From positions 81,925-145,924 of the forward strand of contig JAKPTF010000035.1 in the NCBI GenBank assembly GCA_029571225.1: 64,000 bases of DNA, given 5' to 3'. The DNA is from Candidatus Omnitrophota bacterium (GTDB lineage: Bacteria > Omnitrophota > Gorgyraeia > Gygaellales > Profunditerraquicolaceae). Below are positions 1 through 64,000 of the stretch, one piece after another. Each line of letters opens with the position of its first letter. The stretch's first letter is position 1. The notes below the pieces were generated by a model. It made no database searches. It was not told the origin of the DNA and was given only the letters and a program-made list of their open reading frames with translations. The position numbers and the translations under genes were made by a program.

Positions 1-1
1 T

Positions 2-1381
2 TTCGCAAATAAGGCGCTCAATAGCCGCAAAGACTCCGCTGATATATTTGACATCGAGGGTACCGGTCTTTTGAACCCAATAGCGCATGGAATCCGTATA
101 AACGCTCCTGAAATTCAACAGACGTTCGACGACAAGTCGGTCCGTATCGTCGGTAATGAACGCGTGCTCGCGGAGTTTTGCTTTCGGAATCGAAACGGCA
201 TCGTTCAAGGCAACCTCTTCGGGAATCGAATCCGCGTGGTCCCTGAACAACTGGCGCAGTTTTGACCGGTATAACGAACGCATGCTATAATCCCTGAAGT
301 ACGCTTCATACATCTTATCAATGGTATATTCTGGTCCGCGGCGCAGCACCCAATTCAACGGGCGCAGGTCCATGCCGGGCAGATGGCGGGCAATGACGTC
401 TTTGACCACTGCCCTCCTGCGGGCGATCTGGGCCCACGCGTCGATGTACGCTTTGTCGAATCTGGCCATGAACGTGGCGCCGGCGGCGTCATTCGCGAAT
501 ACAGGGAGTAACGCGAGCACGTTGAATTCTGACACGCCCTGGCGCGTATCTTCCTGCTCCCAGACGAAATTCTCGAACACAAAGAAGCGGAATTCAACGT
601 CGAAATCGGCGATATTGGCGATCTCGTCCCCGACCACATATATGTATTTGTTGCGCAGGCCATGGTCGTTGCATCCAAGGATATGCTCGAGCACGAGATG
701 AGGCGTCAGCTTGGATATGAGCTGCAAGAGCATCTCGCAATTGTTCTGCCGGATCCACATGGATACGACGCCGTTGGCCGGCGTGCCACGGAACACCGCT
801 TCCACGAGCACATCAGGGCCCGCGGGATTGCGGAACGCGTATGCCCCTTCCTGGATATCGACGCCGAGCAGAACATGCTGCAGCTCAACCCAGATCGCTT
901 CATACGCGACATCGTATCCGGGCTTATCGGCCTGGCTTTTCAGAATACACTCGGTCATCGTTCCGTTATCAAACCTGATAAGGAGTTTGTAAACATTCCT
1001 GCCGATGCTTGCGTCCTTAAGGTCGACGATCCTGTAATTGCCCTCATAGCGGCAATTCTGCCTGACCCACGCGTCAACGGCCTTGTCCCATCCCAGCTCG
1101 GCCATGCGCTCCTTGAACAACTCCAGCTGGATGGCTTTGATGTACGCAGGGGCATCATTAATGATCGACCGGTACGCCTGTTTGACGGCGCTGGAGATGT
1201 CCGGGTGTTTCTCGACAAAATACATCCTCGCCAGCGCGGTCGGGCCGACCACCTTTGACGGATTGAACAACGGCCCCGTCAGCTCGTCGAGCGTTATATC
1301 CGACCTGCCGATGTCTTTCCTGATCGCGTCGTTCAACAGGCCGAGCTTCTCCTGATAGTACTGCTGCAGGATATCCCTTCT
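2..1381 (-). other. Module: protein-kinase-like / aminoglycoside-phosphotransferase-like fold (runs off the left edge)
   Basis: Translation near 600-680 reads LGCNDHGLRNKYIYVVGDEIANIADFDVEF. This is a D-x4-N catalytic-loop-like motif followed about 15 aa later by DFD (a DFG-like metal site), the spacing typical of kinase-like phosphotransferases. The rest is unrecognised. Confidence 0.35.
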
Positions 1382-4300
1382 TCCTCCGTCGCGCAGGTCA
1401 CGCGTCCGCTCTATGCGGATCAATCCGGCAGACCGTGCCTCCAACGTTATGGAAATATCGGTACGGTTGTCCATTCCCGCGAGGAATGAAACATCGCCGA
1501 CGACCGCCTCCCGGGCCAAGGTTATTTGCCCGGGGCCTAGCAGGGCCGTAAGGCTTTCGACGTTAAAATTCGCTGCCCGGTCTTCATCGAGAAGGTTAAG
1601 GGCGCCGATGACGATATGTTCTTCGTCAAACCGTGCGACTGCGACGATATCGCTGTCCGGGCCTGACAGCGGCATATACCAGCCGCGTTTCAGAACCGGA
1701 TAACGGTCACGAATTGAGAAAAGTGTTCTGCCTGCCGCCTGATCGACAGTAGCCGTTTTATCGATAGACGGAGCCGGCGCAGTCTGCCCCATATCTGTCT
1801 TGAACATATGGTCTTTGCCGTATACCTGGCCGTTGAATATCAGGGAGTAGCCCGGCAGGACAAGATACAGGAAATAAAGCAGCGCTTTGCTTCTCTGATC
1901 AAGCAACGCCCAGGGATCGCGAAAATCGAATGCATCGTGCTCCGGGCCTATGCTGACGAGATTCTGCTGAAATCCTGTTGGCATGGCGTCGAGTTCGGTA
2001 AGATAGCCGTTCAATACCGATTGCTTGGTGCGATCGGACAGGGCTTCGGCGGCGTAATTCCTCGGCTTCCAGTTGTAAACGCCCGTATAGCGAAAATCGG
2101 CAAGTTCAAGAAGCTCCGGATGACGTTCGAACCCTTCGAACAGGATGAATGCATCCGGATAGGCCCTGCGGATCGCATGGATGAAATCATGGGTCAGATT
2201 GCTTTCGACCTGGATGCCCCAGTTTTCCTTGACCTTGTCAGGCAGCGTTGACAGTGCGGCATCAATGCGGAAACCGTCAAACCCTTTTCCCATCCAGAAC
2301 ATGCCGATATTGACCGCTTCTTCCCGCACCTCGATGCTTGACAGGTCAGGCTGCGCGAGACTGCCCCACCGCCGCGGGAAGCACCTGAGGGGAACCTCGT
2401 CGGTCGCCGACACGACAAACAGGGCGTTACCCGAGGTGACGATATATTCTCTGCTGCCGCGATAACCGATGGACTCGCGCAGGCTTTTCTGCGCCGGGAT
2501 ATAATCGACTCTGTCATTGCTGATCATGACCGATCCTGCTTCCGGATACGTGCCTGCTGTTATTGTGTCGCGGAATTTTTTCCCAAGCTCTACCTTTCTC
2601 AAGAGCGATTCCGCATCGATCTCCCCTCCCTGGACGAGCGTCGTTTTTTCCTCGGTAAAGAAGTTTCCGTCCGTTGCGTTGGTAAACAGGAACCGCTGGG
2701 GATGGTCCCTGGTCAGAGAGGCTGATTTTGCGACGTGCTGGTTTGCCAGCCAGTCGATGATGACCCTGATGCCAAGACTATGCGCCTCATTGATGAAATC
2801 CCGCAGGTCGTCTTCATCCCCGGCGCGCTCGTCAATGAGGTATGGATCGAGGATCTCAAACGGGCTGCCGGTATGTTTCATGACGCCGAGCAAATAAATA
2901 TACGCGATGCCGCTGTCAGCCAGATACTGCAGTTCAGCCCGGGCCTTTCGAAGCCCGGATACATTGTTTCGCGCGTCGCAATAATCCCGCACTGCCATTT
3001 CATAAACGATCCTGCTTGACGTATCTGCCAGAGCCCACGGCAGGGATGTTTTATCCGGGAATAATAAGACGAGCCCGCGCAGCGTTTCTGCGACGCTCCA
3101 TGCCTGGGCTGAACAGCCCCGTTCATTCCAGCTTCCGGCAACGATGTCGCAGTCTCCGTCCAATATCTCCGGCAGCGACCGCAGCGCGTTCATATCGATC
3201 AGGCGGGAAAGCTGCGTGAAGTAATGCTGTTCCGCGAGCAGTTGGACGGTGCTGTCAATGCCGTACACGCGGACGCACGCTTCGATGAACACGCCGGACA
3301 GCCACGGCCATATGGTCCCCTGGTGATATGAATATTCATCCGTATGATACGCCTTGTACTGCGCGTCCTGTGCCGCGAGCGTACGCAATCCGTACGGGGT
3401 AAACAGCTCTTTATTAACCGTGTCCACGATGGTCTGCGCGCGTTCCGCGTCAAACAGCCCTGCCGCCACGGCAAACAGCTGGTTCGGCCGCACCTGGCAG
3501 CCCTGCTGCCGATCGCCGTCAAGCGTATCGAACAGGCAGCGAGCCTCTTCATTCCAGAACGCATCGAAGTTTGACCTGACCTTGCCGGCAAGATTGCGGT
3601 ATCTTTCCGCCTGTGCGCTTTTTCCCTCTTTGCCGTACATATCCGCCATCACGTTGAGGGCATTGAACCAGAGGGCATTGATATCCACTGCCTTGCCGTA
3701 GCGGCTCGTCACCGGGGTCCCGTTACGCTGTGCGTCCATCCACGTGAGCTGGGTGCTGCGGTCGCCGGCGCACAAAAGGTTGTCGCGAGGATCCATTTTC
3801 ACGCTGATCGTGCGCAGGTATGATACGGCGCCTTCGTTGTCTTGCCAGACATGCGGACGCGTAATACCCTGTTCATATGCCTGCATGATCTCCTCGGCCA
3901 AAGATCTCACGGATGCCGCCTCTCCGGCTGCCGAAGACCTTTCGATCATTTCGTTGAGGAACGCGTAATCTCCGGTCGCCTCCAGATACTTCCCAAGCGC
4001 CCACATGAACAGGAGGCTTGCGTCGACGCAATTATATTGCGGATTTTTCCCGTCCCCGACCAGGTTCGGCATCAGCCCATGATCGACATAGCGCAGATAC
4101 GTCCGCAGGACTGCCTTGAAGAGCGCAGTCCGGCCAGTGCATAAACAAAGACCGGGCAACGAGATCATCGCGTCCCTGGTCCAGTTATATAGCCATGCGT
4201 TTTGGCGCTGGTCGAAATGCGGCGATCCGGCGATAACGGTCCATCCGGAAAGCTTCTTATCATAATAGAGGAAATGGCCGGCTGCGCTCTGAAGTTGTTC

Positions 4301-7300
4301 GATAAGCCCGGCATAACGCAGCTGGCGGTCCTGAGCCTGCGCCGGAGACACCAGACACATGGTCCCGGTCTCCTGCGCGACGATCCTGACTGGTTTTGCG
4401 ATCTTCCAGACGCCTGAAGTGATCTCAAGATTGCCCTGGAACGGCAACGGCAGGTCTGCGGGGATCAGCGTGTAATATTCGGCTTTATTGGGCCCTGCGC
4501 GTTTGACCTTGAGCGGCAGGCGCACGCCGTACTCGTTCACGAGGTCTGCCCGTATCGATTCAAAAGAAACCGGGCCTGTTCTCTTTGTTTCGAAGTTAAT
4601 GTGATCAAGCGCCTCAAGGTGCACCATAACCGAAAATTCCAGATTCTCCCGAAGTTCCTGCACCTTGCCCTTGATATGGAACGTGTCTCCTTCACGCTCG
4701 AGGATCCGTTCACCGTCTTCAAGATATGATGTTATTGCCATCTTGTCGATATCGTAAATCTCGCCCGGGACGCGCGGCAGGGCTTTCCTGCCGGGACGCT
4801 GGAGGAATGCATTGCTCCACAGTGTCAAATATGCCGCCGCTGTCAGCGAGGCTTCGAGGACCCTGCTGAACCTAACGGACTGGGCCTGGTATATTCCGAG
4901 CGAACCGTTTTTGAACTCGTCATGCGCCCAGAAGATGGCATCGAGGTACGACTGCGGATCGACCGATGCCGGAATGAGCGTGTTTCCGGTCTGTCGGCGG
5001 CGATTGATCGCGATGCCCTGATGTTGGATGATCCCTTCCCAGAACGGCGCCCCCATTTGTAATCCCGCGTTGGCTGAGACATCTGCTTCGGTGTACTCCG
5101 CAGCTCCGGTGTACCGATCCGAGTCCTGGACCTGGATGTCGGATGCAGCAAGGAGCTGACGCTGCTCGTCAATATTGAACTTTGCCTTGAAAATGAACCT
5201 TCCCGCATAGCGCATGCGCTCAATCCGGTCCCTGAGCTGCTGAAGCTCCACGCCGATGCGCTGGCTCGCCTCGTACGGCTGGATATTCCCGTAGATCACG
5301 ACCTGGATACCGGCTTTGACCATGCGTTCGATATTGCTGTCCGTAAATGCCCGGTCCCGGCCGGCTTTTTCAGGCACGAGCCTGCCAGAATAGGAAACGA
5401 CCATTTGCTGAGGATTCAGCCCGATATTCTTTTTGGCCGCCTGCTTGGCCTTTGCGACCTGTTCCGGCGTCACATGCTCGTAATCGGATACTCCGATCCG
5501 GTCTAATTCTTTCCTGAAAAATTCCGCCGAATATACCCGGTTGTCACCGTTGGTCACGCCGACCAGGTCGGTGCCGGGATCGCGCGCGTTCATCTCATAT
5601 GCGTGGATGGCGCTGACCGCCTTGGTCACGTCCGCGCTCCTCAGGCCGGCGCTTGTCATATCCCACAGGTTGTCGCCATTCAATTCCTTGCGCAGGAAAA
5701 GCCACAGCCATTCATCAGGCACCCCTGCGGCGCGCAGGAACTGCAGGCCGTACCCTTTGATGTCTCCGCCGATAAAAACGCGGTTGCGGTACGTGTGCGT
5801 TGTTGCGCTGAAAATCGCTTCGTCCAATATCCGGTATGCATTGTCGATCTCGCGGCTGTCCGTGCCCTCCGTCATGATCCTGGATTTCTCACCGTAGAAA
5901 ATGCGGCGCCACGCCGCCAGCGGCAACGCCTGCCCGTCGTTGATATCGACGAGAGGCGCCTTATACGCGCTGCCCAGTTCTTCGAGCTGTTTTACCTCAA
6001 GGAACCTGATCAGTTCAAGGGCTGCCTTCGTGAAGAATTCGGTGAATTCAAAGCTCGACGCAGGAGCATCGGACGTATTATATTCATAAAGGATATTGAC
6101 ATAATAGCCCTTGATATCTTTGATCATATATGTCCTGATCCCCAGCTCATTGACCGCTTCGTACACATGGAACGCCACCGGGCTTCCGCCGACAAAAGTA
6201 TTGAAGACCTGCTTCATCCTGCGGATATTTGAAACAGGCACCGGCAACTTGCTGTAATCGAGTGTTACCACGCGGCCGAGCTTATCCCGTGTTTTCATGT
6301 AGTACGGTTCGACGTACAGGATCTTCGCGCCGAGACGCGCCATGGCGGTGGAATGGTATTGTTCGACCCGGCCCAAACCGCCAGCCAATAATGATATCTC
6401 CGCAGCCACGACATAAATGCTCCTTCCGCTCAACTGGGGCGCCCATTTTTCAAGCCAGTTTGCGCTCCCTCGGTCGAAATCAAGCATAAGGATGATCGCG
6501 TTGATGAGCGAAGAGCGCATCCACTGGCTGCGCGTCAGCAGCCAGTCAACGAGCTTCTGCTGGTCTTCTGCAATCATCTGCGCTATGGCCTGAAGGACGG
6601 GATACATCGACTCAATCGGGTATTGCGACCACTGATCGAGGACGGATGCGTAGGCATCGACGGCGGCGAACAATGCCTGTCTTCCCTCGGACATGGACCG
6701 CTCGATATCGCGGCGGATATATTCGAAATCATGCGCCCAGACCGCAATAACCCTGGGTTCTGCGTTCAAATATACGGTACTGTCAAACTCGAGGCTGAAA
6801 TTATTGTCTTCTGCCCTGATCAGGCCACGACGGCGCAGCCCTTCGAGGCGCTGCAGTATCCTGGCGCGATCGGCTGCCAGGCCATGATCGGCGAATACCG
6901 ACGCTGCTGGATCTATGATAGCGCTGACTGAAAGCGCTGTTTCGCATGAATCAGCCATGCTCAAAATCGCCTGCGCGGTGATGTACGACTCAAGCCATTC
7001 AGGGTCGTTCCATCCGCGCTGGTTGTCAAAGAGGTTCGGGAACGCGAGTGGGATTCGGTATGAAGGCCCCCTGCCGCCGTCGCGCAAGGCCAGGTCTCCT
7101 GTTGCCCCGGAATAATATATCCGGATCGGTGCCTGATACCGCAGGCAGAACTGCAGCTGGAAGGCGCTGACAAAGATCACGCTTTGTCCGATACGAATGA
7201 TCTCGTCTTCCATCTTATAACGCCGGGCCCTGCGCAACTCAGGCTCACCGCAGGCCCTGCCTCCAGAGCACGTCGATACCCGATAGTAAAGTTCTCTGCC

Positions 7301-58300: not shown

Positions 58301-61300
58301 CTCAGTTTTAACTGCCGCCTTTGAAAACCATTCAAAAAGATCTGCCTTCTGCTTCTCAATAGCAGCCCTGGCTTTCTCCGGATGCTTAATATGCCACATG
58401 AGAATCGCGGTTCCAATAATTATGTTAATTCCCGTTACGGTAAGATAATATATCGCAGCGGCGATTCCATACATTGCCGCTCTAACCTTACCTCTCCATC
58501 CCAATTCATTGTTTGTAAACGGCCCAAACAAGAAAACAAAAGGCAGCATGTAGAAGAATAACTGGAAGATAACTCCAAAAGGATGGATAGGAGTGAGCGC
58601 AACGATAATGAAAAGGATCATTGCAAATTTGATGGTAGGTTCATAAGCTTTGTATAATTCTTCGAAAGGCACGACCGGATACACTATGTCTTTAACGCCA
58701 GAAGTAAACAATCCGGCCTTACCGAGAAAAGCGTTCATTACCTTTTCCGCATGCAATGGAATTAGGGTGGCGAAAGTAAAAACAAGACTCCAGAAACGCT
58801 GCAGGAGCAATCCCAAGCTTATTAAAACATTTATAGAAACAGCGGTCCGAGCCCATCCATACTTCTGGAAATATCCCATTAACTTTACCAGGTGGGAATC
58901 CCCGGTTTTGGGCCTGCTCATAAATAACCTTAACCCTCCCGAGGTAATAGCTTCTGTAAAGATGTATTGCGCAACAATGAAAAATAGGGGCAATGCAAAA
59001 TAGGAGAACGGGCTAAATGTGACAAATAACGCAAATACAAAGATCGTTAGATTATACAAGGGAATAAGCGGTTTGTTGAAATAGAAGTCAAAATTCTGCA
59101 GCAAAGTCAGCTTCTCTGTCCAATGAAGCTGGTCGCTTAGAAGCAACTTCTGAAAGTGTGTAGATAGAGCCTCATCCAATACCAGGCCGCCAAATCTATT
59201 TTGAAAATCAAGGATCGCAACCATGAGCATTTCACGCGGCCGGCTCCAGCTTATTACCGGCGTAAAGCATCCCCTGTATCCCAAAAGCATTGCTTCATGC
59301 GCAGCCGCTGTATCCTCGATGTTAGACATAAAAGCTGCCCACTGCCTCATTACGTTCCACCTCACCAGACCTGGGCCGTAGAAAGCGTGGATCCCAACTT
59401 CCGCTTCCATTGCCACTATCCGCTCATTCCAGGTATCCTCTGCCACCTTGTGGTTGGCTGCAACGTTACTGACACCTCCCGTCCCCATGGACAAACGCGT
59501 AGTCATCCACCCCAAGGTAGCATCACTCATAAACTCCTGGGCTACGAATGGCAGCAAGTAATAGTCGGAGGGGAAGAAAAAGTGGTCACGGTCAAGGTTA
59601 ACGATCAACGCATCATCCTGCCCATTCTTGAAGATCATATGATCAATGAACCGCGCTGCGATGCTCCATTTATCCGTCTTAACTTCCCATCGCTTCGATT
59701 CTCCCTTTTCATAATTGTAGACTATGGGCTTGCCCTCTAAATCGACCAGAACATCGCCTTTCTCAGAGTCCTTGGTAGAAACGACGACCTTTCTTCCGTA
59801 TTGATTAACCACGAACCCGCGATTTTTCACTAACTCCTTAATAAGCGTGTTGGGTTCCTTCCCTCCCCATCTTTTATCTTCTTCACTCTCATTTGCCTTA
59901 TCAGGATCAATGTCTTCATGAATATGTACCAAACCAACATACTTGTTAACTTTCTCTATAAGCGCCCCTTCATCAATAATAATATTTTCCTTCCATTCAG
60001 ATTCTTTGGCCAGGCGGTTTGGCCTCGCGTCATTCGCTTCGCGCTCCATTTGATACCTGAAGAAATCTTTATAGGCGTTTTCCAGAGCCTCTTCAGCGAA
60101 AAGCAGTGTTTTCAAATACCCGTCTGCTCGATAAATAACCCACCCTACGACGATCCTATCTCCAATTACCTTGGAGATCTCTTCAATGACCACCGGCACC
60201 TTCATTTCATCTTTCCAAGAATTCGGCTTCTTTTTCAGGACTTTTTCCTTTCCCTGGGCCACAAGCCTATTTATAGCTTCCGGATCATTCTCCGCGAGAT
60301 AAGCAAAAACCATGTCAGCAAGATCATCGATAGTTGCCCTGAGCGCCATTTTCGCATCAGTGAATTTTTCAATGTTCTTCAAGTAAATATCTCGAACAAA
60401 TTGATTTTTGAAATCATCGCGGTTAGTTATTTGCAAAGCCTCCAGCAAGTTATTATCTGAGAACAATCCCTCTTTCAAGAATATTCTCCACGATTCCCCA
60501 AATTGCTCCTTAAATACCCTGAATCCGGATTTAAGGACTCGGTAAGGTCTTTGCTTGGTACGCGGCTGTTCATCAAGCTCCTCTATGTTGCCATCGAGAA
60601 ATTCAATGCTGGGAATTATTCTTTTCTTCCCTGTTCCTTTGCCGATTGTCATGATTGTTGGATTCCGAGATCGCCTATCGAACTCTTTCTCTCCGCCAAC
60701 CAACGCAATTTGGGTTTCCATTTTATTGAACCATTTAATTATTTCCAGCTGGGCTTGCGCATTAATTGGTTTGTAAATAGTCTTTTCTCCTACCTTGGTA
60801 GCCTTCAGCAACTCGGCGGCTTCGTTTTGATCGACAAGCCAGTATTTTTTGAGAGTGTTATTAACCATTCCTTCGAATGAAATTTGCCAATACCTCTTAG
60901 TTTGAATTCTTTCCAACTGTTTCTTGCCGATCCCTTCGTAAACGAAAATGCTATCCCATCCCTGATTGCGGATTATAGATGTCGAAGCTGCATCCGCCAT
61001 CAAATACCACCAGCTGCGAAAAGACATTCTGACATTCAGCAACACCAAGGGGATGCCTATAACAATTAATCCAAGCGTAACAATAGTACCAAGGCCGAAA
61101 GCTAAGCTCAATACTGCAATTCCGACCGAATACGCCCCGAGGACGAAGAAATATTTGATAAAGAAACTCTTCATGACGCGCAGCCGTTGTTCGCTTAATG
61201 CTCCTCGGTAAGGATATTCTTCGTCTTTTGTCTTGCCCAAGAAATGCCTAATATGGAATGATATATAAGGCAGGAATATTTTGACGAAGAACATCGGCCA

Positions 61301-64000
61301 GATCACTATCTGGAACTCCAGGAACGGCATCATCTTAATGACAAGATGAGCGAAGATGGCGATAACAAATGCGTAAAAGATAGCGGCGACCAATCCAAAA
61401 CCCAAAGCAGTGGTTCCGACAATGATGATCGTGAAAACTACCGTGGGAAGACCCAAAGTATAATACGGATTATCCGAGTAACGCGCCAAGGCAACAGGGA
61501 ATACTGGCTGGATAAATCCGCTTGTCAACTGTTTCAACCAAGCGCGAACAGCCAACGTAAACAATCCGACTGCAGCGCCAGTGGCGGCTGCAACCTGTAA
61601 TGACATAACAATGCCGCCTCCGGTCACTATAAACAATACGGCAGTTAGAATGAATGCCACAACGGCAATCCCGAGAACCAAATAGGGATTCCTGTTTTGG
61701 CCCCATCTTCTCAAGCGCTCCGATTTAATAACAGCGTTTGCCGGATCTATGTTCTTCTTAATAAGCCATTCCCTTATAGGCTGGGAAGCTTCTTCAATAA
61801 ACCTTTGCGAAACCTCGGCTGGGCTTACTTGCTTTCCATTTACGGTTATAGAAGCTGCAGATTTCTCCCACAAGTTCTTGTGAATTCCCACCTTGTTGCT
61901 GTCCGGGTGCAGAGGCAACATGTAACGGTTCAGGGAAAACTTCAACACAGGATCCACATAATGCCTGCCTTCAGATTGCTTACCGCAATACTCAAGCACC
62001 CTCTTCACATCTCTATCGGAAAGAATATAGTATGCTTTGGTCCATTCTTTGTGCTCTTTGAGCAAGGCCTTTATCACATCCATGCGCTTGCCTTCGTTTT
62101 CTTTCTTCCATTTTGCAGCATGGTCAGTCATCAGGGCGAAGAAGATATATCCGATCGGATTGACGTAGAATTTTTCCAGATGAGTAACAACCAGCAAATT
62201 ATGCATTGCGTCATATTCGTCAGTCGCAATCCCTGATCCGGGCGTTACACTTGCGATAAGTTCCCTCAGGGCATTCTCAACTTTGCTGCGCGCAGGGTGT
62301 TCTACAGCTATTAATGCTCCGTCTCTCAATGTTGCCAAAGTGCCATAGTAGGTTTCAAGCAGAAACCGCAAATGAATTAGATCGATAATCTTATAGTTAC
62401 GCTGTCGTTCCTGAGATAAAGCCGCTTGGATTTCATCAATGTTCTTGCTGTCCAACCACTTACCAGGTTCAATTTCCCCCGACTCCAAAGCCCAATATAT
62501 ATTTCGCACATAGGAACGAGCTTCCTCGTTATTCATCAGGTATTCCGCCAAACGACGATAGTCAATCCTGTAAAAACCTGCCAGGTACTTGATTATTCCC
62601 CACATAATTGCTTCATGGCGATGTAACGAATCGAGTCGCAAGATTATATTCTTGTATTGCTCCCCTCCAATATAATCCTCTCTTTCTGTTCCAGCAAAAA
62701 TGCTCTTCGCTCCGGTCTTATGGATTTTAGGTTGCTCGCCTGCTATTTTCTTGCCTAAGCGTCTTAATCCGATATACGAAATTACTGTGACAAATGCTGC
62801 CAAGGCAATAGGCAAAAGAAGTGTAACCAAACCAATTCCGGCAATAACAACTAGACCAAACATTCCCGACACCCCGGAAGACATAGCGGAGAACGGCTTG
62901 CCTTTGGATATGGACGCGGGAAGGTTCAACAGATCCTGCGCAGCCTCGTTCAGGCAGCGATACACAAACACCGCTCCACTATTGATATTTATATACTCTC
63001 CCTGTACCCTAAAGTATTCTACAAAGATCGCAATATCTCTAGGCAGCAATGAAAGCACGGGACTACGATCAACTCCCCTATCATAGTCTTTCCATTCAAT
63101 CGGAGCATATTTATTCTTGATCTGGTATTGCAGGCTGTTGAAAACAAAGCGCTTAGCGTCTCTCTCTGGCAATTTGGCTGGCATTTGAATTACTCTGCCC
63201 GAATTCTTTTCAACAGAGATTTGTTCGCCGTTGAAATTATTCTTCTCATTCATCCACTCCTCGGGATTTGTTAAGAGCTTTAACATCTCTTCCCTAATTC
63301 CAACGGAATAATCCGAGCGATTGACGTTCTTGCTCATGACCCAGTAGTTTCCATAGCCTTCAAATGCCGTATAAGCTTCTTGATAAGGAATAAATTTGCC
63401 ATCATCAATCTTGTAGCTTCTTTTTGCCAACCCTGACGCAGTTTCGTAATACATCTTGATGGCTGGCAATTGCATGAGATTAACAATCCCCAAGAGGTCC
63501 AAAGATGGTCCAGCGTATTCATCCCACAATGTAGTTCCCTCAGCGGTAAGAGCAAATTTTTTCATGCTTTTTCTATTTTCTCTCTTATCATCGACGTCGT
63601 ACTGGAAGGTGATGGATTTTTTATCCGGGGTGGCGGGATCGAGAGCCTCCAGATGGATGGTACGATTGCCGGTCTTGCTGATCCAATCCATGTTCTGCTC
63701 GTAGAGGGAATAATTCAAACCATATGCGGGATTAAAATGATAGGTCGTACCGCCCTGACCGTAACCAAGATGCAGCGGGCCGGCATCGTAATAGCTGGCA
63801 ATATCCTTCTGAAGATTGATAAAGGTGACATCGGTGAAGGCGCCGCTCGCGATAAGCTCTTCGGAAGTCATCTGCTCGCCAGCCTGAACCTTATCCAGGA
63901 ATACTTTGGTCTCCGGGCTATTCAGTGCGAATCCATCCATGGTCGTCACAAGGTGACCGGAACCGTCTTTGAACTGCAGAATGATATTGGTGACCTTGCT
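2..64000 (-). CDS. Giant multi-enzyme ORF, internal fragment (both ends lie outside the window; 21,333 codons here)
   Basis: Hand translation of the minus frame with codon first bases at 64000, 63997 ... 4 gives continuous enzyme-like protein, and I met no stop. All 51 minus-strand ORFs in the supplied track start at coordinates = 0 or 2 (mod 3) and none at 1 (mod 3), so this frame yields no bounded ORF, as expected if it is open edge to edge. Dozens of catalytic motifs (GlgA KTGGLGDV, GlgB, GH13 regions I-IV, GT2 QxxRW, etc.) all lie in this one frame. Confidence 0.9.
1391..3010 (-). other. Module: GH13 alpha-amylase-family catalytic domain (third GH13 in the window)
   Basis: The four GH13 conserved regions occur in order: I VIIDWLANQH (~2735-2765), II GFDGFRIDAAL (~2258-2292), III AFILFEGFE (~2125-2150), IV IGPEHDAFD (~1925-1955). 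Confidence 0.7.
3060..4780 (-). other. Module: glycogen debranching enzyme, amylo-alpha-1,6-glucosidase type (GDE_C barrel plus N-terminal domain)
   Basis: WLYNWTRDAMISLPGL (~4150-4200), GKNPQYNCVDASLLFMWALGKYLEATGD (~3960-4060), LTWMDA, GKAVDINALWFNAL and YHQGTIWPWLSGVFIEA (~3270-3320) are hallmark motifs of archaeal/bacterial-type debranching enzymes. Confidence 0.75.
4800..6420 (-). other. Module: GT-B alpha-glucan synthase/phosphorylase-like (GT5 vs GT35 not resolved)
   Basis: SIYVVAAEISLLAGGLGRVEQY (~6355-6420) resembles the N-terminal GGL loop of glycogen synthases/alpha-glucan phosphorylases. Also present are VGVTNGDN (~5545-5570) and SYSGRLVPEKAG (~5360-5400), plus C-lobe-like [32 protein letters not shown] (~5040-5140). 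Confidence 0.5.
7400..9130 (-). other. Module: glycogen-synthase-like GT-B glycosyltransferase (divergent, GT5-like)
   Basis: IVFVSPEAKPVSAAGGMASVVGELAEVL (~9040-9125), GNDWMCAPL (~8640-8665), ITNGVS (~8255-8280), LLSRAAEQKGI (~8020-8065), FSLWEPGGISPMKALAFGSPCLVS (~7735-7805). Confidence 0.6.
9560..10990 (-). other. Module: GH13 alpha-amylase-family catalytic domain (second GH13)
   Basis: Regions I ILVDLIPHVNQ (~10683-10715), II GIAGVRIDVAHNF (~10447-10487), III FIFIGENYG (~10240-10275), IV VVTALETHDYF (~10058-10090). Confidence 0.75.
13690..14260 (-). other. Module: HAD-superfamily hydrolase-like, degenerate motif I
   Basis: AVVLDIAGVLFDN (~14210-14250) is motif I with the second Asp replaced by Ala. 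LAKPDRRAF (~13765-13795) and VLFIDDQCANA (~13690-13735) are typical HAD-IA motifs III/IV. Confidence 0.5.
14850..15450 (-). other. Module: nucleotidyltransferase-fold-like
   Basis: GLVFFINGDVG ... MKGSDLDVLVVTG (~15255-15400) resembles the G-x-n-[DE]h[DE]h signature of Pol-beta-type nucleotidyltransferases. The support is weak. Confidence 0.35.
17150..17720 (-). other. Module: class I SAM-dependent methyltransferase
   Basis: VLDVGCGAGHLAVLMAVEGHRVVGLDLS (~17590-17670) is motif I plus the acidic post-I residue. NAKGKLIIEISD (~17160-17200) fits the later beta strand. Confidence 0.65.
18430..19650 (-). other. Module: GH9-like (alpha/alpha)6 glycoside hydrolase
   Basis: AMSFVMGHGDRAPRNP (~18650-18700), GRIVGGP (~18570-18595) and YRDTASEEDSVMFNEPTNQDQNSAVLFA (~18445-18530) resemble the GH9 patterns S-x-V-x-G-x-G..P, GALVGGP and Y-x-D...NE-x-x-x-D-x-NA. 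The usual H-x-R is absent. Confidence 0.45.
20500..21110 (-). other. Module: CE4 / NodB-type polysaccharide deacetylase
   Basis: HVIFRFDDGWKSQF (~21058-21100; TFDDG-type motif 1), QIGAHSASE (~20880-20905; H-S-x-x motif 2, second His not seen), ITFMFHKL (~20530-20560). Confidence 0.55.
21130..21560 (-). other. Module: beta-sandwich, possible carbohydrate-binding module
   Basis: About 140 aa, beta-rich (VEGWAVPQTGWDVDL ... YVVEYMVDVRQ ... AIAIAIEAQEADGRLEAYCDGIRV), between the last TM helix and CE4. This is a pattern-level resemblance only. Confidence 0.3.
21660..23250 (-). other. Polytopic transmembrane block following GT2 #2
   Basis: Long hydrophobic runs, e.g. FFGFLIPFFLNPIMTTTIIAVAYSIV, ATFAAFTCVLAFGIWAAPFISACILY, GIAGVTVFTLGILAAYY, LLMIGTWIWDILTLMILY, GAALALMTGAIAL, IVLPVAGMFVV. 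Confidence 0.5.
23250..23960 (-). other. Module: GT2 processive beta-glycosyltransferase #2 (BcsA/PgaC-like)
   Basis: YLIFLPLYNE (~23925-23955), FIDDGSTDAT (~23830-23860), VILIDGDS (~23680-23705), GAGGVF (~23440-23475), GDDMEVT (~23375-23395), QRIRWRRG (~23250-23275). Confidence 0.75.
23990..24760 (-). other. Polytopic transmembrane block following GT2 #1
   Basis: Hydrophobic runs FAVGISLIAMSSTFFFSPLVIILIGINWLILGIPAWTYIV, MMAAVLSLFYYY, FGIGQFYFSMLLFDHLSFIALA, AAMLMPLIYGTYLML, WGSVLVIISFAIVTLI. Confidence 0.5.
24760..25540 (-). other. Module: GT2 processive beta-glycosyltransferase #1 (NodC / hyaluronan-synthase-like)
   Basis: VVLPVYNEE (~25490-25520), AVNDGCQDNS (~25385-25420), ISLDSDT (~25220-25245), GEDRHLT (~24925-24955; the GEDRxLT motif of the NodC/HAS/chitin-synthase group), QQLRWKRS (~24812-24838). 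Confidence 0.8.
25565..25715 (-). other. Transmembrane helix pair preceding GT2 #1
   Basis: IKPFCLALSVSLFIGAFATIMLVSSVFGFIALVSSVWSIVFLCAGF. Confidence 0.5.
26200..27040 (-). other. Module: HAD-IIB (Cof / sugar-phosphate phosphatase type)
   Basis: LIAFDYDGTLT (~27005-27040), AIVSGRG (~26885-26915), FVAGDSENDLDML (~26365-26405). Confidence 0.65.
27560..28170 (-). other. Module: HAD-IA, beta-phosphoglucomutase-like
   Basis: AVIFEVDGVIFDT (~28110-28150; Glu at the usual nucleophile Asp position), LAVGSGS (~27830-27850), THGKPHPDMF (~27715-27745), LVIGDAVADMEAARAGG (~27625-27680). Confidence 0.6.
28230..29400 (-). other. Module: cofactor-independent (metal-dependent) phosphomutase, archaeal ApgM-like
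   Basis: KIVFLVMDGLGGLH (~29345-29390), GVTPGSGPGHFAIFGYDP (~29190-29245), VNFATARDG (~29085-29110), VLVVTGDHSTPAAMKGHSWHEVPV (~28365-28435). Confidence 0.75.
29560..29715 (-). other. Hydrophobic hairpin (2 predicted TM helices) bracketed by DGG motifs
   Basis: ILNALPFILMAFHEVLLVVIPAIAAFFHGYVTAGLLWLGIGTVIIQSWLIW lies between the DGG copies at ~29723 and ~29453. Confidence 0.5.
29890..30480 (-). other. Module: minimal nucleotidyltransferase (Pol-beta superfamily)
   Basis: VYVFGSFIMCPAYSDVDVLVIT (~30245-30310) matches hG[GS]-x9-13-DhDh. Confidence 0.55.
30600..31400 (-). other. Module: bicupin-like (two double-stranded beta-helix halves)
   Basis: DVIYVESGKVTLGLF...IELSAGD (~31145-31225) and IELIFVVRGEVKYTVY...LLLSAGD (~30705-30805). 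Confidence 0.4.
32294..33115 (-). repeat. Uncharacterised ~270-aa module, paralog copy B (pairs with 44879-45673)
   Basis: Shared blocks with copy A: S-x-IRE-x-W-x-I; G-x-TN...N...I...CNP; SYIP...L-x-KEIT-x-RT..RA-x-Q-x-G; LYY-x-W..EDE-x-RA-x-Y..DYE..L..PLR-x-L-x-RGLG. Both copies are bounded by DGG. Confidence 0.6.
33190..33365 (-). other. Hydrophobic hairpin bracketed by DGG motifs
   Basis: GFIVFVGMIMAGSVGAGMLIGSFPAAAFIILAIGISAALAGVSMDAFGVIGRFI lies between the DGG copies at ~33416 and ~33116. Confidence 0.5.
33580..34420 (-). other. Module: HAD-superfamily phosphatase (IIB-like)
   Basis: VVLIFDVDKTLL (~34375-34410), VAIISGN (~34265-34285), IYHGNEFFKGGNA (~33585-33630). Confidence 0.5.
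34490..36960 (-). other. Module: GH94 glycoside phosphorylase (cellobiose/chitobiose-phosphorylase type)
   Basis: SRGMGTRDSWQD (~35830-35875), DDHLWMILAIYEY (~35655-35695), LLTADWNDAN (~35490-35520), GSWLTGAAAWYLRAVMQFMLGIKP (~34720-34790), DPCIPSNWAGYRVKRKFRG (~34640-34700). The DGG-to-DGG length is 832 aa. Confidence 0.7.
36995..37145 (-). repeat. Short peptide repeat LSTVAD(E)DLGPA x2 with conserved QALG-x-STVA lead-in (third copy near 44880-44950)
   Basis: Plus-strand ...ggcaggccccaaatc(a/t)tc..ccgccacggtaga... occurs twice (37021-37060 and 37091-37130). ccgccacggtagagagacccagggcctgcc at ~37111 compares with ccgccacggtagattgacccaaggcctgcg at ~44907. Confidence 0.6.
37150..37215 (-). other. 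Single predicted TM helix
   Basis: VQLLAVLYLAFIAFPAIVLISI. Confidence 0.45.
37810..40010 (-). other. Module: phosphoglucose-isomerase-like (SIS fold), divergent
   Basis: VIKPGIGGQHTPF (~39690-39730; GIGGS-type), VIPSSKSGSTDETMMIF (~39500-39550; SKSG(T/S)T-x-ET), MYDNVAGRWTGDL (~39090-39130; near-match to the PGI G-G-R-[FY]-S signature). Confidence 0.55.
40900..41650 (-). other. Module: GHKL (Bergerat-fold) ATPase-like #2
   Basis: TDLIQNMLHED (~41583-41610; N box), VRFKDNGAGFD (~41300-41335; G1), GSFGEGLKMAVA (~41215-41255; G2). Confidence 0.5.
42000..42800 (-). other. Module: GHKL (Bergerat-fold) ATPase-like #1
   Basis: IDLVQNHLPSD (~42715-42750), IEIRDDGVGYD (~42565-42600), GKFGEGLKIAAL (~42485-42520). 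Confidence 0.5.
42860..44760 (-). other. glgB: Module: 1,4-alpha-glucan branching enzyme (CBM48 + GH13_9 + C-terminal domain)
   Basis: [22 protein letters not shown] (~44600-44665), [31 protein letters not shown] (~44000-44097), HIDGLRMDAVASMLY (~43801-43845), TVAEESTAWP (~43640-43670), ALSHDEVVH (~43445-43475). The DGG-to-DGG length is 652 aa. Confidence 0.9.
44879..45673 (-). repeat. Uncharacterised ~265-aa module, paralog copy A (pairs with 32294-33115)
   Basis: SSDIREEWMI, GLTNVTISENGARIYGCNP, SYIPRQHLGKEITLRTLLRAIQIGQALG, LYYIWGVEDEHRADYNPDYEDNLLLPLRTLSRGLG. Confidence 0.6.
45800..46480 (-). other. Module: RelA/SpoT-homolog-like nucleotidyl (pyrophospho)transferase domain
   Basis: LVYIPLAYRLGM (~46395-46430; cf. 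EIYAPLAxRLG), IDHRIKGALSIYLRLNKK (~46170-46220; cf. GRxKxxYSIYxKM), YFEIQIFDESSFVFTKAEYG (~45820-45880; cf. EIQIRT...AEYG). Confidence 0.5.
47150..47950 (-). other. Module: HAD-IIB phosphatase-like
   Basis: LVFFMDKDGTLTG (~47905-47945), FVVITGG, IIGIGDSATDYNFL (~47185-47225). Confidence 0.6.
48200..48490 (-). other. Module: Nudix-fold-like, Nudix box degenerate
   Basis: VHTQGLWHRTVFVLLVNKEGEILIGVRG (~48400-48480) parallels the N-terminal strands of the two Nudix modules below, but no G-x5-E-x7-REUxEE box follows. Confidence 0.3.
48700..49080 (-). other. Module: Nudix hydrolase (IDI-like), copy B
   Basis: VHVDGDLHRDNRVWVINPRGQVFVQKRG (~48985-49065), GGHLNLGDTYMEGCLREIEEELNL (~48862-48935). 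Confidence 0.6.
49450..50840 (-). other. Module: cupin-containing ~460-540-aa module, copy B
   Basis: SRQGIHTHEAEELTFSG (~50320-50375; cupin motif 1-like). GCLVRIPAGYSHTLRN (~50010-50060) matches cupin motif 2, G-x5-P-x-G-x2-H-x3-N. The conserved tail is SIDWTFKD, LYPGLQVVRFMPWPKNI, RGPPE, VLNNN, ITGF, DYEIIVITASE. Confidence 0.45.
50852..51055 (-). other. DGG-bracketed hydrophobic linker, copy B
   Basis: VIADAFLKITRFAEGMRGFNDLLMLFGAVVVITLEVKKIYVRN... is homologous to the linker at 53585-53812 (shared [YF]GAVVVI-x-L-x-VK). Confidence 0.5.
51070..52570 (-). other. glgA: Module: glycogen/starch synthase (GT5, GlgA type)
   Basis: VVIVTPESEPFFKTGGLGDV (~52495-52565), LHANDWPAALVP, GIPNGIYYPIW, PLIGMVARIDEQKG, LYPSEFEPFGTRPVVALINRVPGVVRRTGGLADN (~51290-51390). 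Confidence 0.85.
52800..53150 (-). other. Module: Nudix hydrolase (IDI-like), copy A
   Basis: HLAGEWHSDVYVFVINKDGQILLQRRA (~53060-53145). GHVLAGETPEQAAVSRMQQELGM (~52940-53015) aligns residue for residue with the IDI-type box [24 protein letters not shown]. Confidence 0.65.
53585..53812 (-). other. DGG-bracketed hydrophobic linker, copy A
   Basis: SNAQALKSSVYSILGMIRLALRKVGLIAYGAVVVIWLRVKNL...AGIFGSAGIFTAMAYSA. Confidence 0.5.
53830..55430 (-). other. Module: cupin-containing ~540-aa module, copy A
   Basis: SRQGIHKHPK (~54790-54825), GYVVRTPAEYIHTIRN (~54428-54480). The conserved tail is SIDWTFKD, LYPGLQIVRIMPWPKNI, RGPPE, VLNNN, ITGF, DYELIIVTASE. Confidence 0.45.
55442..56366 (-). repeat. 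Tandem repeat copy 1 (C-proximal): guanylate-kinase-like P-loop module
   Basis: VVYSGPPGGGKGAVWE (~55885-55920), HTRNIRKGEQMGVNYHYRNPDHWF, LIILECGLAWFEAL, MSIFISPF. This copy is offset 939 bp (313 codons) from copy 2; for example, atgaagatgctcatcaggtc occurs at ~55494 and ~56433. Confidence 0.6.
56367..57305 (-). repeat. Tandem repeat copy 2 (N-proximal): guanylate-kinase-like P-loop module
   Basis: AIYSGPPGGGKGAVWE (~56824-56858), HTRNIRDGEQMGRNYHYRNPGHWF (cf. guanylate kinase TTR-x-PR-x-GE-x-x-G-x-DY-x-F), GLEIAKRIHAREVKEAEKVKA lead-in. The similarity is mirrored in the antisense track ORFs 55628..56284 and 56321..57493. Confidence 0.6.
57860..59150 (-). other. Polytopic transmembrane block (C-terminal to the GT48-like core)
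   Basis: LTIFVFALFVTFSPFSYFALPLFFIVAQYIF, VLISLGLLLQRFWSLVFTFATLI, FAMILFIIVALTPIHPFGVIFQLFFYMLPFVFLFGPF, AAMYGIAAAIYYLTVTGINIIIGTAILMW, LVAAVYAIVTLSVIGGTVAAAILPAILTPALLIVMLFAWGAIGLIY, LSIMYGLVVSGYVIF. Confidence 0.55.
59150..60000 (-). other. Module: FKS / callose-synthase (GT48)-like catalytic core, tentative
   Basis: IDHMIFKNGQDDALIVNLDRD (~59620-59690; cf. FKS NHAIIFxRGExIQxIDxNQD), LGWMTTRLSMGTGGVSNVAANHKVAEDTWNE (~59425-59520; cf. [24 protein letters not shown]), FDFYFNKPLIPLYNLTIFVFALF (~59040-59110; cf. FYYAHPGFHLNNLFIQLS). The comparison is against remembered FKS1 sequence only. Confidence 0.4.
61040..61700 (-). other. Polytopic transmembrane block (N-terminal to the GT48-like core)
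   Basis: NPYLVLGIAVVAFILTAVLFIVTGGGIVMSLQVAAATGAAVGLFTLAV, LGLPTVVFTIIIVGTTALGFGLVAAIFYAFVIAIFAHLVI, FLEFQIVIWPMFFVKIFLPYI, FFVLGAYSVGIAVLSLAFGLGTIVTLGLIVIGIPLVLL. Confidence 0.55.
62765..62885 (-). other. Predicted TM helix or helix pair
   Basis: SGVSGMFGLVVIAGIGLVTLLLPIALAAFVTVISYIGL. Confidence 0.45.

Follow-up and report, generated by a model that had tools for sequence, protein, structure and literature searches.

Open reading frames (ORFs) that exceed 20 kb are common in the Omnitrophota (Seymour et al. 2023, PMC10066038). In this phylum 46 genes of more than 90 kb, with products of up to 85,804 amino acids (aa), were described by West-Roberts et al. (2023, bioRxiv 10.1101/2023.11.21.568195), who set the threshold for 'giant' at >30 kaa (thousand aa), and a catalogue of 916 proteins that reach 10 kaa, the longest of 147,155 aa (KR0015B_u4168876_114), was compiled by Nielsen and Lui (2026, bioRxiv 10.64898/2026.06.07.730766). 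Here we describe a 64,000-nucleotide stretch of DNA (hereafter the window) that is occupied from edge to edge by a single uninterrupted frame on its minus strand. The window is very likely an internal piece of a real giant Omnitrophota gene of the membrane-anchored multi-enzyme class, built from whole-protein units that are delimited by the tripeptide Asp-Gly-Gly (DGG). As hundreds of Omnitrophota proteins from 10 to 147 kaa in length are already on record, the open frame alone would be one more clear example; DGG is a concrete and cheaply testable candidate for the boundaries of such proteins, where the literature leaves standing the question of whether they remain one chain or are cut.

Two published groupings are closest to the gene. 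The Archaeovorin type, whose type sequence is a 39,678-aa protein of Velamenicoccus archaeovorus LiM (10.1101/2023.11.21.568195; PMC10066038), combines GT5/GT1 glycosyltransferases, methyltransferases, glycoside hydrolases, NUDIX domains, peptidases and numerous transmembrane regions, and most full-length Archaeovorins carry a divergent SecA DEAD helicase domain (10.1101/2023.11.21.568195). A 'multi-enzyme metabolic' class has also been defined, as has a sugar-metabolism module with PF08323 and PF00534 at its core (Nielsen and Lui 2026, 10.64898/2026.06.07.730766). Published topology work treats long Omnitrophota proteins as single membrane-anchored chains and describes a membrane bias. Cleavage of giant products has been raised as a possibility, with the cleavage points called unknown (West-Roberts et al. 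2023, 10.1101/2023.11.21.568195), and the lack of cleavage points has been stated in published work to block the structural and functional dissection of giant proteins.

The giant gene of the window is a further example of this published Archaeovorin or multi-enzyme class, and DGG is the new detail. With the Archaeovorins it shares the phylum, a single ORF that extends over tens of kb, numerous transmembrane helices, an N-terminus in which no domain is identifiable, and a repertoire of GT5 (glycogen-synthase-like), GT1, methyltransferase, glycoside hydrolase, NUDIX, HAD and HATPase_c domains. The same families are on record for modules of sugar metabolism and of regulation in long Omnitrophota proteins. 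Of the Archaeovorin enzyme set, GT5/GT1/GT2, methyltransferase, GH13/GH94/GH9/GDE and NUDIX are present, whereas no peptidase was recovered from the 21,333 aa covered, which are part of the gene; one may be encoded beyond the window. It differs from the Archaeovorins in showing a candidate delimiter and in the lack of SecA-DEAD, C39/S8 peptidase, HEAT/TPR and dockerin domains from what is part of a gene; no SecA-related Pfam match was obtained at E ≤ 1e-3 in the window, which again covers only part of the gene. As in the class of Nielsen and Lui, many Pfam families tile a membrane-anchored chain with none dominant, PF08323/PF00534 occur together with methyltransferase, HATPase, HAD and NUDIX domains, and domains are repeated without nucleotide tandem repeats. 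The ORF lies above the threshold of at least 10,000 codons used there for very long Omnitrophota proteins, although the window gives a minimum length and totals are not comparable. Their catalogue covers domains and topology, not linkers, and the terms DGG, cleavage, linker and polyprotein are absent from it (10.64898/2026.06.07.730766). DGG punctuation is mentioned neither in West-Roberts 2023 nor in Nielsen and Lui 2026, and a further literature search returned nothing relevant.

The original prediction held that one stop-free frame crosses all 64 kb and represents a giant gene, no shorter than 21,333 codons and of a kind reported from Omnitrophota. A programmatic stop scan bore out the first part: the minus frame read from base 64000 (codons 64000-63998 ... 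4-2) contains 21,333 codons and not one TAA, TAG or TGA over the whole window. The stop scan, the Omnitrophota fragments discussed below and the published domain set all agree with the second. Stops number 320, 613, 857, 1035 and 1138 in the remaining five frames, where the longest open run is 662 codons, and even with the lowest stop rate of another frame (1.5%) the probability of 21,333 open codons is ~e^-320. The guanine-plus-cytosine (GC) content by codon position is 0.56/0.39/0.62, third positions (GC3) exceeding second positions (GC2), and the amino acid composition is ordinary for a protein. Pfam and NCBIfam matches (thirty overlapping 1,000-aa pieces were used for Pfam and DGG-delimited units for NCBIfam) place domains from aa ~2,690 through the C-terminal edge. 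The giant frame is thus confirmed as real coding sequence, far beyond chance. Since the ORF leaves the window at both edges, 21,333 aa is its minimum length, and because stop codons of every type are absent from it, a reassigned genetic code is not needed as an explanation. The earlier observation that no bounded ORF lies in this frame arose because the ORF listing omits ORFs that run off both ends. Residue i of the protein corresponds to window position 64000-3(i-1), counting downwards.

2..64000, minus strand: giant ORF of 21,333 codons that runs off the window on either side (domains, composition, GC3 > GC2)

The tripeptide DGG occurs 37 times in this frame as compared to 6.7 ± 2.7 times in shuffles (maximum 15 over 500), and is the top over-represented tripeptide, while the looser variants E/N-GG, DG-A/S and DAG are not enriched in the window protein. 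Placement is equally strict. None of the 37 motifs falls within a Pfam envelope (P ~1e-5, envelopes making up 26.6% of residues), whereas the control motifs (non-D)GG and DG(non-G) lie inside domains in 42% and 38% of cases, respectively. The flanks of the motif are more hydrophilic than average. The motif is absent from the helix-rich aa 1-2853 and from a 2,635-aa block of GT2, deacetylase and GH9 modules. Segments bounded by DGG correspond to complete stand-alone proteins with spare sequence of only ~5-40 aa, as seen for GlgB, phosphoglycerate mutase, the beta-phosphoglucomutase family and GlgA. On this sequence evidence DGG is read as a protein-level module delimiter. The claim that no gaps separate the modules therefore stands in part: intergenic gaps are indeed missing, but the junctions are not seamless, being made of 37 short linkers with the conserved DGG.

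1382..55441, minus strand: 37 DGG motifs of 9 nucleotides each (start to start+8), residue before Asp usually Lys, Arg or Gln
Starts 1-10, minus strand: 55433, 53813, 53576, 51056, 50843, 48560, 45674, 44870, 44765, 42809
Starts 11-20, minus strand: 40016, 37793, 37445, 36971, 34475, 33416, 33116, 32285, 31406, 30584
Starts 21-30, minus strand: 30485, 29723, 29453, 28175, 27491, 27326, 27053, 25769, 17864, 16637
Starts 31-37, minus strand: 15755, 14822, 14309, 11987, 7385, 7073, 1382

A diverged relative carries the same motif. P0004, a homologue of the bicupin unit described below, is encoded on L002, a 25.9-kb JGI contig with a GC content of 0.47 (JGI 3300018489, Ga0192804_1000208). L002 contains homologues of window aa 7992-8704 (55% identity), 4315-4377, 4379-4964 (69%) and 4961-5146 (75%) in a different module order, the 7992-8704 unit directly preceding the 4315-5146 units. 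Homologous borders keep DGG while their neighbours differ (RDGGQDAL/KKDGGEKEE, LFDGGEMQ/HADGGELP and QRDGGKNE/ARDGGKEE), and the contig encodes 8 DGG in 5,388 aa against 1.4 expected. Between L002 positions 7509 and 12270 homology runs on across two frameshifts (~9970 and ~11715), which are probably assembly indels; the gene caller thus split what was probably a continuous giant ORF into five ORFs. A short stretch containing stops occurs at L002 6255-6381.

Other Omnitrophota proteins show a different motif. In P0005, P0036 and P0008 (3.0-3.7 kaa) the pattern K[AST]SS[AS]G occurs four times each, as compared to 0.04-0.07 expected, apparently between modules, and may be a lineage-specific counterpart of DGG. 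The same pattern is found once in P0011, also from Omnitrophota. All four are multi-module Omnitrophota proteins (1.4-3.7 kaa) that carry a signal peptide and end in a conserved '...ALIAA'. P0007 and P0028 present instead a '(D/S)xAML' motif together with a C-terminal 'VGGID'.

Overall, the chain consists of ~38 protein-sized units joined in one frame, with more than 20 distinct Pfam families, of which GT5 and GH13 are the most repeated (3 copies each) and none dominates. The enzymes had been taken as unrelated, a view that our annotation contradicts, since most of those identified by Pfam and NCBIfam act on alpha- and beta-glucans and on sugar phosphates. The set comprises three GlgA-like domains, GlgB, a debranching enzyme, three GH13, GH94, GH9, two membrane GT2, a deacetylase, phosphoglycerate mutase, a beta-phosphoglucomutase-family HAD and NUDIX. 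This is a coherent glucan and sugar-phosphate pathway and not a random assortment, and it bears on the debate over prey-wall digestion versus storage or envelope polysaccharide. The modules, from the N- to the C-terminus, are as follows.

55442..64000, minus strand: N-terminal region without DGG, aa 1-2853 (hydropathy scan, relaxed Pfam, self-BLAST)
53813..55432, minus strand: helical bundle and bicupin copy 1, aa 2857-3396 (AlphaFold2, Foldseek)
51056..53575, minus strand: NUDIX domain resembling isopentenyl-diphosphate (IPP) isomerase and full-length glycogen/starch synthase, aa 3476-4315 (Pfam NUDIX, Glyco_transf_5, Glycos_transf_1)
48560..50842, minus strand: bicupin copy 2 and NUDIX, aa 4387-5147 (Pfam, self-BLAST; 69-75% identity to L002)
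42809..44764, minus strand: complete 1,4-alpha-glucan branching enzyme GlgB, aa 6413-7064 (NF003811; Pfam CBM_48, Alpha-amylase, Alpha-amylase_C)
40016..42808, minus strand: two divergent HATPase_c-type ATPase modules, aa 7065-7995 (Pfam, self-BLAST)
37793..40015, minus strand: family-less unit, aa 7996-8736, 741 aa (55% identity to its L002 homologue)
34475..36970, minus strand: GH94 glucan phosphorylase, supersandwich and catalytic domain, aa 9011-9842 (Pfam GH94_b-supersand, Glyco_hydro_94, E 4e-75)
29453..34474, minus strand: eight short units between DGG motifs (33-353 aa each), for the most part unannotated, aa 9843-11516 (NCBI fragment name 'nucleotidyltransferase domain-containing')
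28175..29452, minus strand: complete cofactor-independent phosphoglycerate mutase (PGAM), aa 11517-11942 (NF003160)
27491..28174, minus strand: HAD hydrolase of the beta-phosphoglucomutase (beta-PGM) family, aa 11943-12170 (TIGR02009; Pfam HAD_2)
17864..25768, minus strand: longest DGG-free stretch after the N-terminal region, aa 12745-15379, 2,635 aa (Pfam, hydropathy)
24605-25519 and 23129-23959, minus strand: two membrane GT2 synthase modules (Pfam; ~13 hydrophobic helices in the unit aa 12745-15379)
20735-21097, minus strand: polysaccharide deacetylase (Pfam)
18473-19576, minus strand: GH9 (Pfam)
16637..17863, minus strand: S-adenosylmethionine-dependent methyltransferase, aa 15380-15788 (Pfam Methyltransf_31/25/23)
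7385..11986, minus strand: GH13 alpha-amylase-family and GlgA-like GT5/GT1 domain, aa 17339-18872 (Pfam, NCBIfam)
1382..7072, minus strand: GT5-like domain, amylo-alpha-1,6-glucosidase (GDE_C, E 1e-96) and GH13, aa 18977-20873 (Pfam, NCBIfam)

Several of these units are complete by the measure of curated models. GlgB spans positions 5-618 of the 619 of NF003811 with 909.6 bits (cutoff 741), and PGAM spans positions 5-401 of the 403 of NF003160 with 488 bits (cutoff 468). Coverage is just as full in two units that score below their cutoffs: the beta-PGM-family unit (TIGR02009 positions 2-184 of 186, 124.5 bits, cutoff 153) and the GlgA-like domain at aa 3815-4307 (TIGR02095 positions 2-475 of 477, 303 bits, cutoff 328). 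The latter aligns to residues 4-480 of the 485 of E. coli GlgA (2qzs, E 1e-32) and stops 6 aa ahead of a DGG. When aa 2854-6430 were compared with PDB sequences, the only matches were known glycogen/starch synthases and NUDIX or IPP-isomerase proteins. A HAD-IIB phosphatase is located between the beta-PGM-family HAD and the membrane GT2 modules, and one more HAD follows the methyltransferase.

The bicupin unit provides a structural view of a DGG-bounded segment. The AlphaFold2 model of aa 2854-3396, built from a 20-sequence alignment, reached a predicted local distance difference test score (pLDDT) of 87.2 and a predicted template-modelling score (pTM) of 0.84, with a compact fold over residues ~45-536 and pLDDT <50 at both DGG-bearing ends. 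Foldseek matched the model to bicupins such as oxalate decarboxylase (E 1e-9). An exhaustive HMMER search of 1.84 billion representatives recovered 32 homologues of the unit, and all named ones belong to Omnitrophota.

Duplication is evident within the chain. Self-comparison revealed internal paralogues at 69%, 43%, 35% and 26% identity: a P-loop module (55562-57322); the bicupin, whose second copy at aa ~4489-4859 is 43% identical to the first (53813-55432 versus ~49400-50600); an unannotated module of ~230 aa present twice (45002-45685 versus 32438-33127, 35% identity), both copies of which start at a DGG; and the HATPase modules, an internal repeat of aa 7056-7341 and 7430-7765 (26% identity, window 40700-42830). 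Nucleotide-level tandem repeats are absent from the window.

These patterns suggest how such a gene might have been assembled and what it might do. The gene would have grown by the fusion, duplication and shuffling of complete protein-coding units, with DGG as their functional delimiter. The encoded chain begins with a helix-rich N-terminus devoid of recognisable domains and continues with enzymes that make, branch, debranch, phosphorolyse and hydrolyse alpha- and beta-glucans and others that interconvert sugar phosphates and nucleotide sugars, with hydrophobic helices scattered between them. Co-translation would keep the enzymes of a glucan-handling pathway together and in fixed stoichiometry. 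At the unit borders DGG could be recognised by a processing protease, in which case the product would be a polyprotein, or else serve as a fixed hinge on one membrane-tethered chain.

The second of these readings is a real possibility, if somewhat short of probable. Under it, DGG would be a flexible soluble hinge (or a docking motif) and the product would remain one membrane-tethered chain, used for channelling and not subject to proteolysis. The lack of a protease domain in the window agrees with it, as do the flexibility of Gly-Gly, the hydrophilic linkers with their low model confidence, and the published practice of treating such proteins as single membrane-anchored chains. However, flexible linkers rarely hold an invariant tripeptide, and EGG/NGG, DGA/DGS and DAG show no enrichment; the diverged relative keeps DGG while the flanks change; and other Omnitrophota use the equally strict K[AST]SS[AS]G, which looks like a recognition site that co-evolves with a partner. 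That the motif is strict and exposed, and that other lineages have a strict motif of their own, favours a recognition site, most simply that of a processing protease. Putative cleavage at DGG is a suggestion we advance with reserve. The complete scenario of a bacterial polyprotein, in which at least 37 DGG would be cut during or after membrane insertion by a protease whose coding sequence lies in another part of the gene or genome, releasing ~38 enzymes and small membrane peptides, and in which lineage-specific delimiters would co-evolve with the protease, is offered tentatively. If true, the polyprotein would supply the missing cleavage points for the giant proteins of Omnitrophota, and through giant genes an entire pathway would be expressed in fixed stoichiometry from a single start codon.

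Precursors cut after Gly-Gly are well known, and include polyubiquitin, the LxGG sites of viral papain-like proteases, and the double-glycine leaders of bacteriocins that are cut by C39 peptidases. The window protein resembles these systems in that units of one frame are parted by a short motif ending in Gly-Gly within exposed linkers. It differs from them in having Asp at P3 and Lys or Arg at P4, which match none of their consensus sites. Classical C39 double-glycine leaders carry hydrophobic residues at -4, -7 and -12; no conserved hydrophobic pattern is found upstream of DGG at the 37 sites, and no Peptidase_C39 match was obtained with Pfam in the window. In other giant proteins of Omnitrophota, C39 domains have been reported close to the N-terminus.

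A number of observations weigh against our interpretation. Pfam scans of the 21,333 aa (relaxed to E ≤ 1 for the N-terminal 2,100 aa) recovered no peptidase domain. The residue before Asp (position -4, or P4 if the cut follows Gly-Gly) is Lys, Arg or Gln in 24 of the 37 sites. Conservation of DGG rests on one independent relative, L002, and DGG is not enriched in the more distant Omnitrophota homologues of one module. The 34 helices counted along the chain come from a plain hydropathy scan, and single helices between enzymes of cytoplasmic type would produce an implausible alternating topology if all were real. Finally, only 8.4 kb of the contig are confirmed by a second assembly, and the true gene ends are not reached.

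It is also necessary to consider whether the motif reflects a signal in the nucleic acid. The commonest 8-mer of the coding strand is GACGGCGG, with 27 copies (26 in frame) and only 1 on the other strand, and the Asp of DGG is encoded by GAC in 33 of 37 motifs, as compared to 43% gene-wide; the codon of the first Gly looks skewed as well. Such a skew, together with DGG-bounded modules that seem to have been shuffled between L002 and the window, could be expected if GACGGCGG were a site of internal ribosome binding or initiation, of RNA processing or of recombination, with modules made or shuffled separately. Codon context accounts for most of this bias: GAC is already used in 73% of Asp-Gly dipeptides and GGC in 66% of the first Gly of Gly-Gly (Fisher p 0.055 and 0.19, respectively). 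DGG codons in L002 are varied (GAT/GAC and GGA/GGC/GGG/GGT), and nucleotide conservation around the motif does not extend past the 8 bases. On these three lines of evidence we reject a DNA or RNA signal at GACGGCGG, the frequency of which arises from the DGG motif and an ordinary dipeptide-context codon preference, with no separate DNA signal. Internal translation starts after DGG are likewise rejected, since Met is not enriched after the motif (12 of 37, against 16 ± 3) and neither are in-frame combinations of a Shine-Dalgarno sequence and a start codon (3, against 3.6 expected). With no Rfam matches in the window either, we regard a nucleic-acid signal as improbable; judged from codons and flanks, we conclude that selection acts on the DGG peptide.

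More improbable still is that the contig is an assembly chimera, or an artefactual or synthetic concatenation of unrelated genes. Three observations might be invoked in its favour. Codon composition is mosaic, the GC3 of the GH94 unit being 0.46 as compared to 0.61-0.70 in neighbouring units; no match to the source contig was found in genome and metagenome contig collections; and a relative, L002, has another module order. Random joins, however, would not hold one stop-free frame over 64 kb; the same delimiter and internal paralogues extend along the full length; and L002 reveals a like fusion in another organism. An independent assembly provides the most direct evidence. When 5.8 billion proteins were searched with aa 10100-11550, two fragments of 100% protein identity were recovered, P0002 and P0003 (HOU36401.1 and HOU36063.1), both labelled 'partial [Candidatus Omnitrophota bacterium]' at NCBI; their contigs measure 3.4 and 5.1 kb. 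P0002 is identical to aa 10274-11393 of the window protein, and the contig that carries P0003 (L001) corresponds to window 33255-38341 with 3 mismatches (99.94% DNA identity). L001 is a SPAdes node from ERZ761562 with 3.4x coverage. This second, fragmented assembly covers 8.4 kb of the window, including 10 DGG unit junctions and both borders of the GH94 unit. Since the GH94 shift in GC3 sits inside the independently assembled L001, it is not an assembly join.

29822..38341, minus strand: stretch reproduced by an independent SPAdes assembly (ERZ761562; HOU36063.1, HOU36401.1)

Note that direct evidence against chimerism is limited to 8.4 kb out of 64 kb; for the remainder the argument is made from the lack of stops, the paralogues within the chain and a delimiter that is consistent throughout. 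The GC3 mosaic follows DGG-bounded units elsewhere as well, with values of 0.53 in the N-terminal region (55433-64000), 0.52 in the methyltransferase unit (16637-17863) and 0.48 in a 91-aa unit (27053-27325), and suggests units of different origin or age. Least credible, together with chimerism, is a decaying or silent locus whose open frame is not translated as a whole, for which the two frameshifts inside continuous homology in L002 might speak, but against which stand the stops that 64 kb would gather, the intact contrast between GC3 and GC2, the scores of GlgB (909 versus 741) and PGAM (488 versus 468) in excess of curated equivalog cutoffs, and the peptides from the giant ORF of V. archaeovorus reported in the literature.

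The matching fragments also locate the window taxonomically. An Omnitrophota origin, guessed at earlier, is supported by fragments at 99.9-100% identity labelled Candidatus Omnitrophota bacterium, and further named homologues, though more distant, are likewise from Omnitrophota. The NCBI labels of the matching fragments thus indicate that the window is encoded in an Omnitrophota genome. No relative was recovered when the first 5,000 aa were searched against genome and metagenome contigs, with a second, alignment-based scan, and a protein search with aa 15780-17340 yielded no match.

The N-terminal region has homologues in P0001 (62% identity) and in P0006 (42% identity), the latter from an Omnitrophota metagenome-assembled genome. 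The called start of P0001 is 101 nucleotides into its contig and ~78 aa upstream of the first residue of the window, which suggests that little of the gene's 5' end is missing from the window; the N-terminus of the giant gene may be ~240 nucleotides (about 80 codons) past window edge 64000. A hydropathy scan revealed ~13 hydrophobic helices in aa 383-2050. No Pfam match was obtained for aa 1-2100 even at E ≤ 1, none occurs before aa ~2690, and aa 1-2700 matched no PDB sequence. The AlphaFold2 model of aa 1150-2100, based on a 2-sequence alignment, had a pLDDT of 31.6 and was unusable. An impression that aa ~1300-1650 resemble a processive beta-glucan synthase was unsupported, the relaxed Pfam search (E ≤ 1) being empty, and is not claimed. 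A duplicated P-loop (guanylate-kinase-like) module closes the region (aa 2227-2500 and 2540-2813, 69% identical by self-BLAST).

The cyclic beta-1,2-glucan synthase Cgs/NdvB, a membrane protein of ~2,900 aa with glycosyltransferase and GH94 domains, offers a smaller comparison. Like the window protein, it is a multi-domain glucan machine embedded in the membrane, with a phosphorylase-type GH94 domain among its parts. It is, however, about ten times smaller. The N-terminal membrane region of the window protein had no sequence match to a solved structure, and no homology is claimed.

Along the whole window, 34 hydrophobic segments were counted (19-aa Kyte-Doolittle mean ≥ 1.7) with a simple hydropathy window, which is not a topology predictor; the count agrees with the membrane bias described in the literature. 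Short cassettes of 71-158 aa running from DGG to DGG, each with 1-2 hydrophobic helices, are found at 53576-53812, 50843-51055, 36971-37444, 33116-33415 and 29453-29722. Two helix-bearing cassettes (aa 10196-10295 and 11427-11516) belong to the series of short units at aa 9843-11516; aa 9840-11514 had no match among PDB sequences. Helix cassettes may be signal anchors for the next unit, or small membrane peptides that are set free.

The family-less unit at aa 7996-8736 had no Pfam or NCBIfam match, and the comparison of aa 7062-9008 with PDB sequences was likewise empty. The unit holds 'IPSSKSGSTDETMM' (SKSGSTDET), which in our own reading recalls the SKSGxTxET of phosphoglucose isomerase and SIS-domain proteins.

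The opposite strand and RNA features of the window were also surveyed, with 0 Rfam matches, 0 tRNAs and 0 tandem repeats. On the plus strand, seven ORFs of 250 aa or longer, up to 636 aa (e.g., 51608-53518, plus strand), lie antisense to the giant frame. None has a Pfam match, and they look like antisense shadow ORFs of a GC3-rich gene. Promoter- and terminator-like matches (bases 1-60000 scanned) were mostly near shuffle expectation. Those that modestly exceeded it were terminator-like matches in 1-20000 (33, against 19.9 ± 5.3 in shuffles, an excess of ~2.5 standard deviations) and promoter-like sites in 40001-60000, the two excesses spanning ~2.5-2.7 standard deviations. The strongest coding-strand terminator-like hairpin (7819-7840, minus strand) has a stem of 9 pairs (6 G-C) and a T-rich tail after it, and lies within the ORF just past the GT1 part of a GlgA-like domain, ~140 codons ahead of the DGG at 7385-7393.

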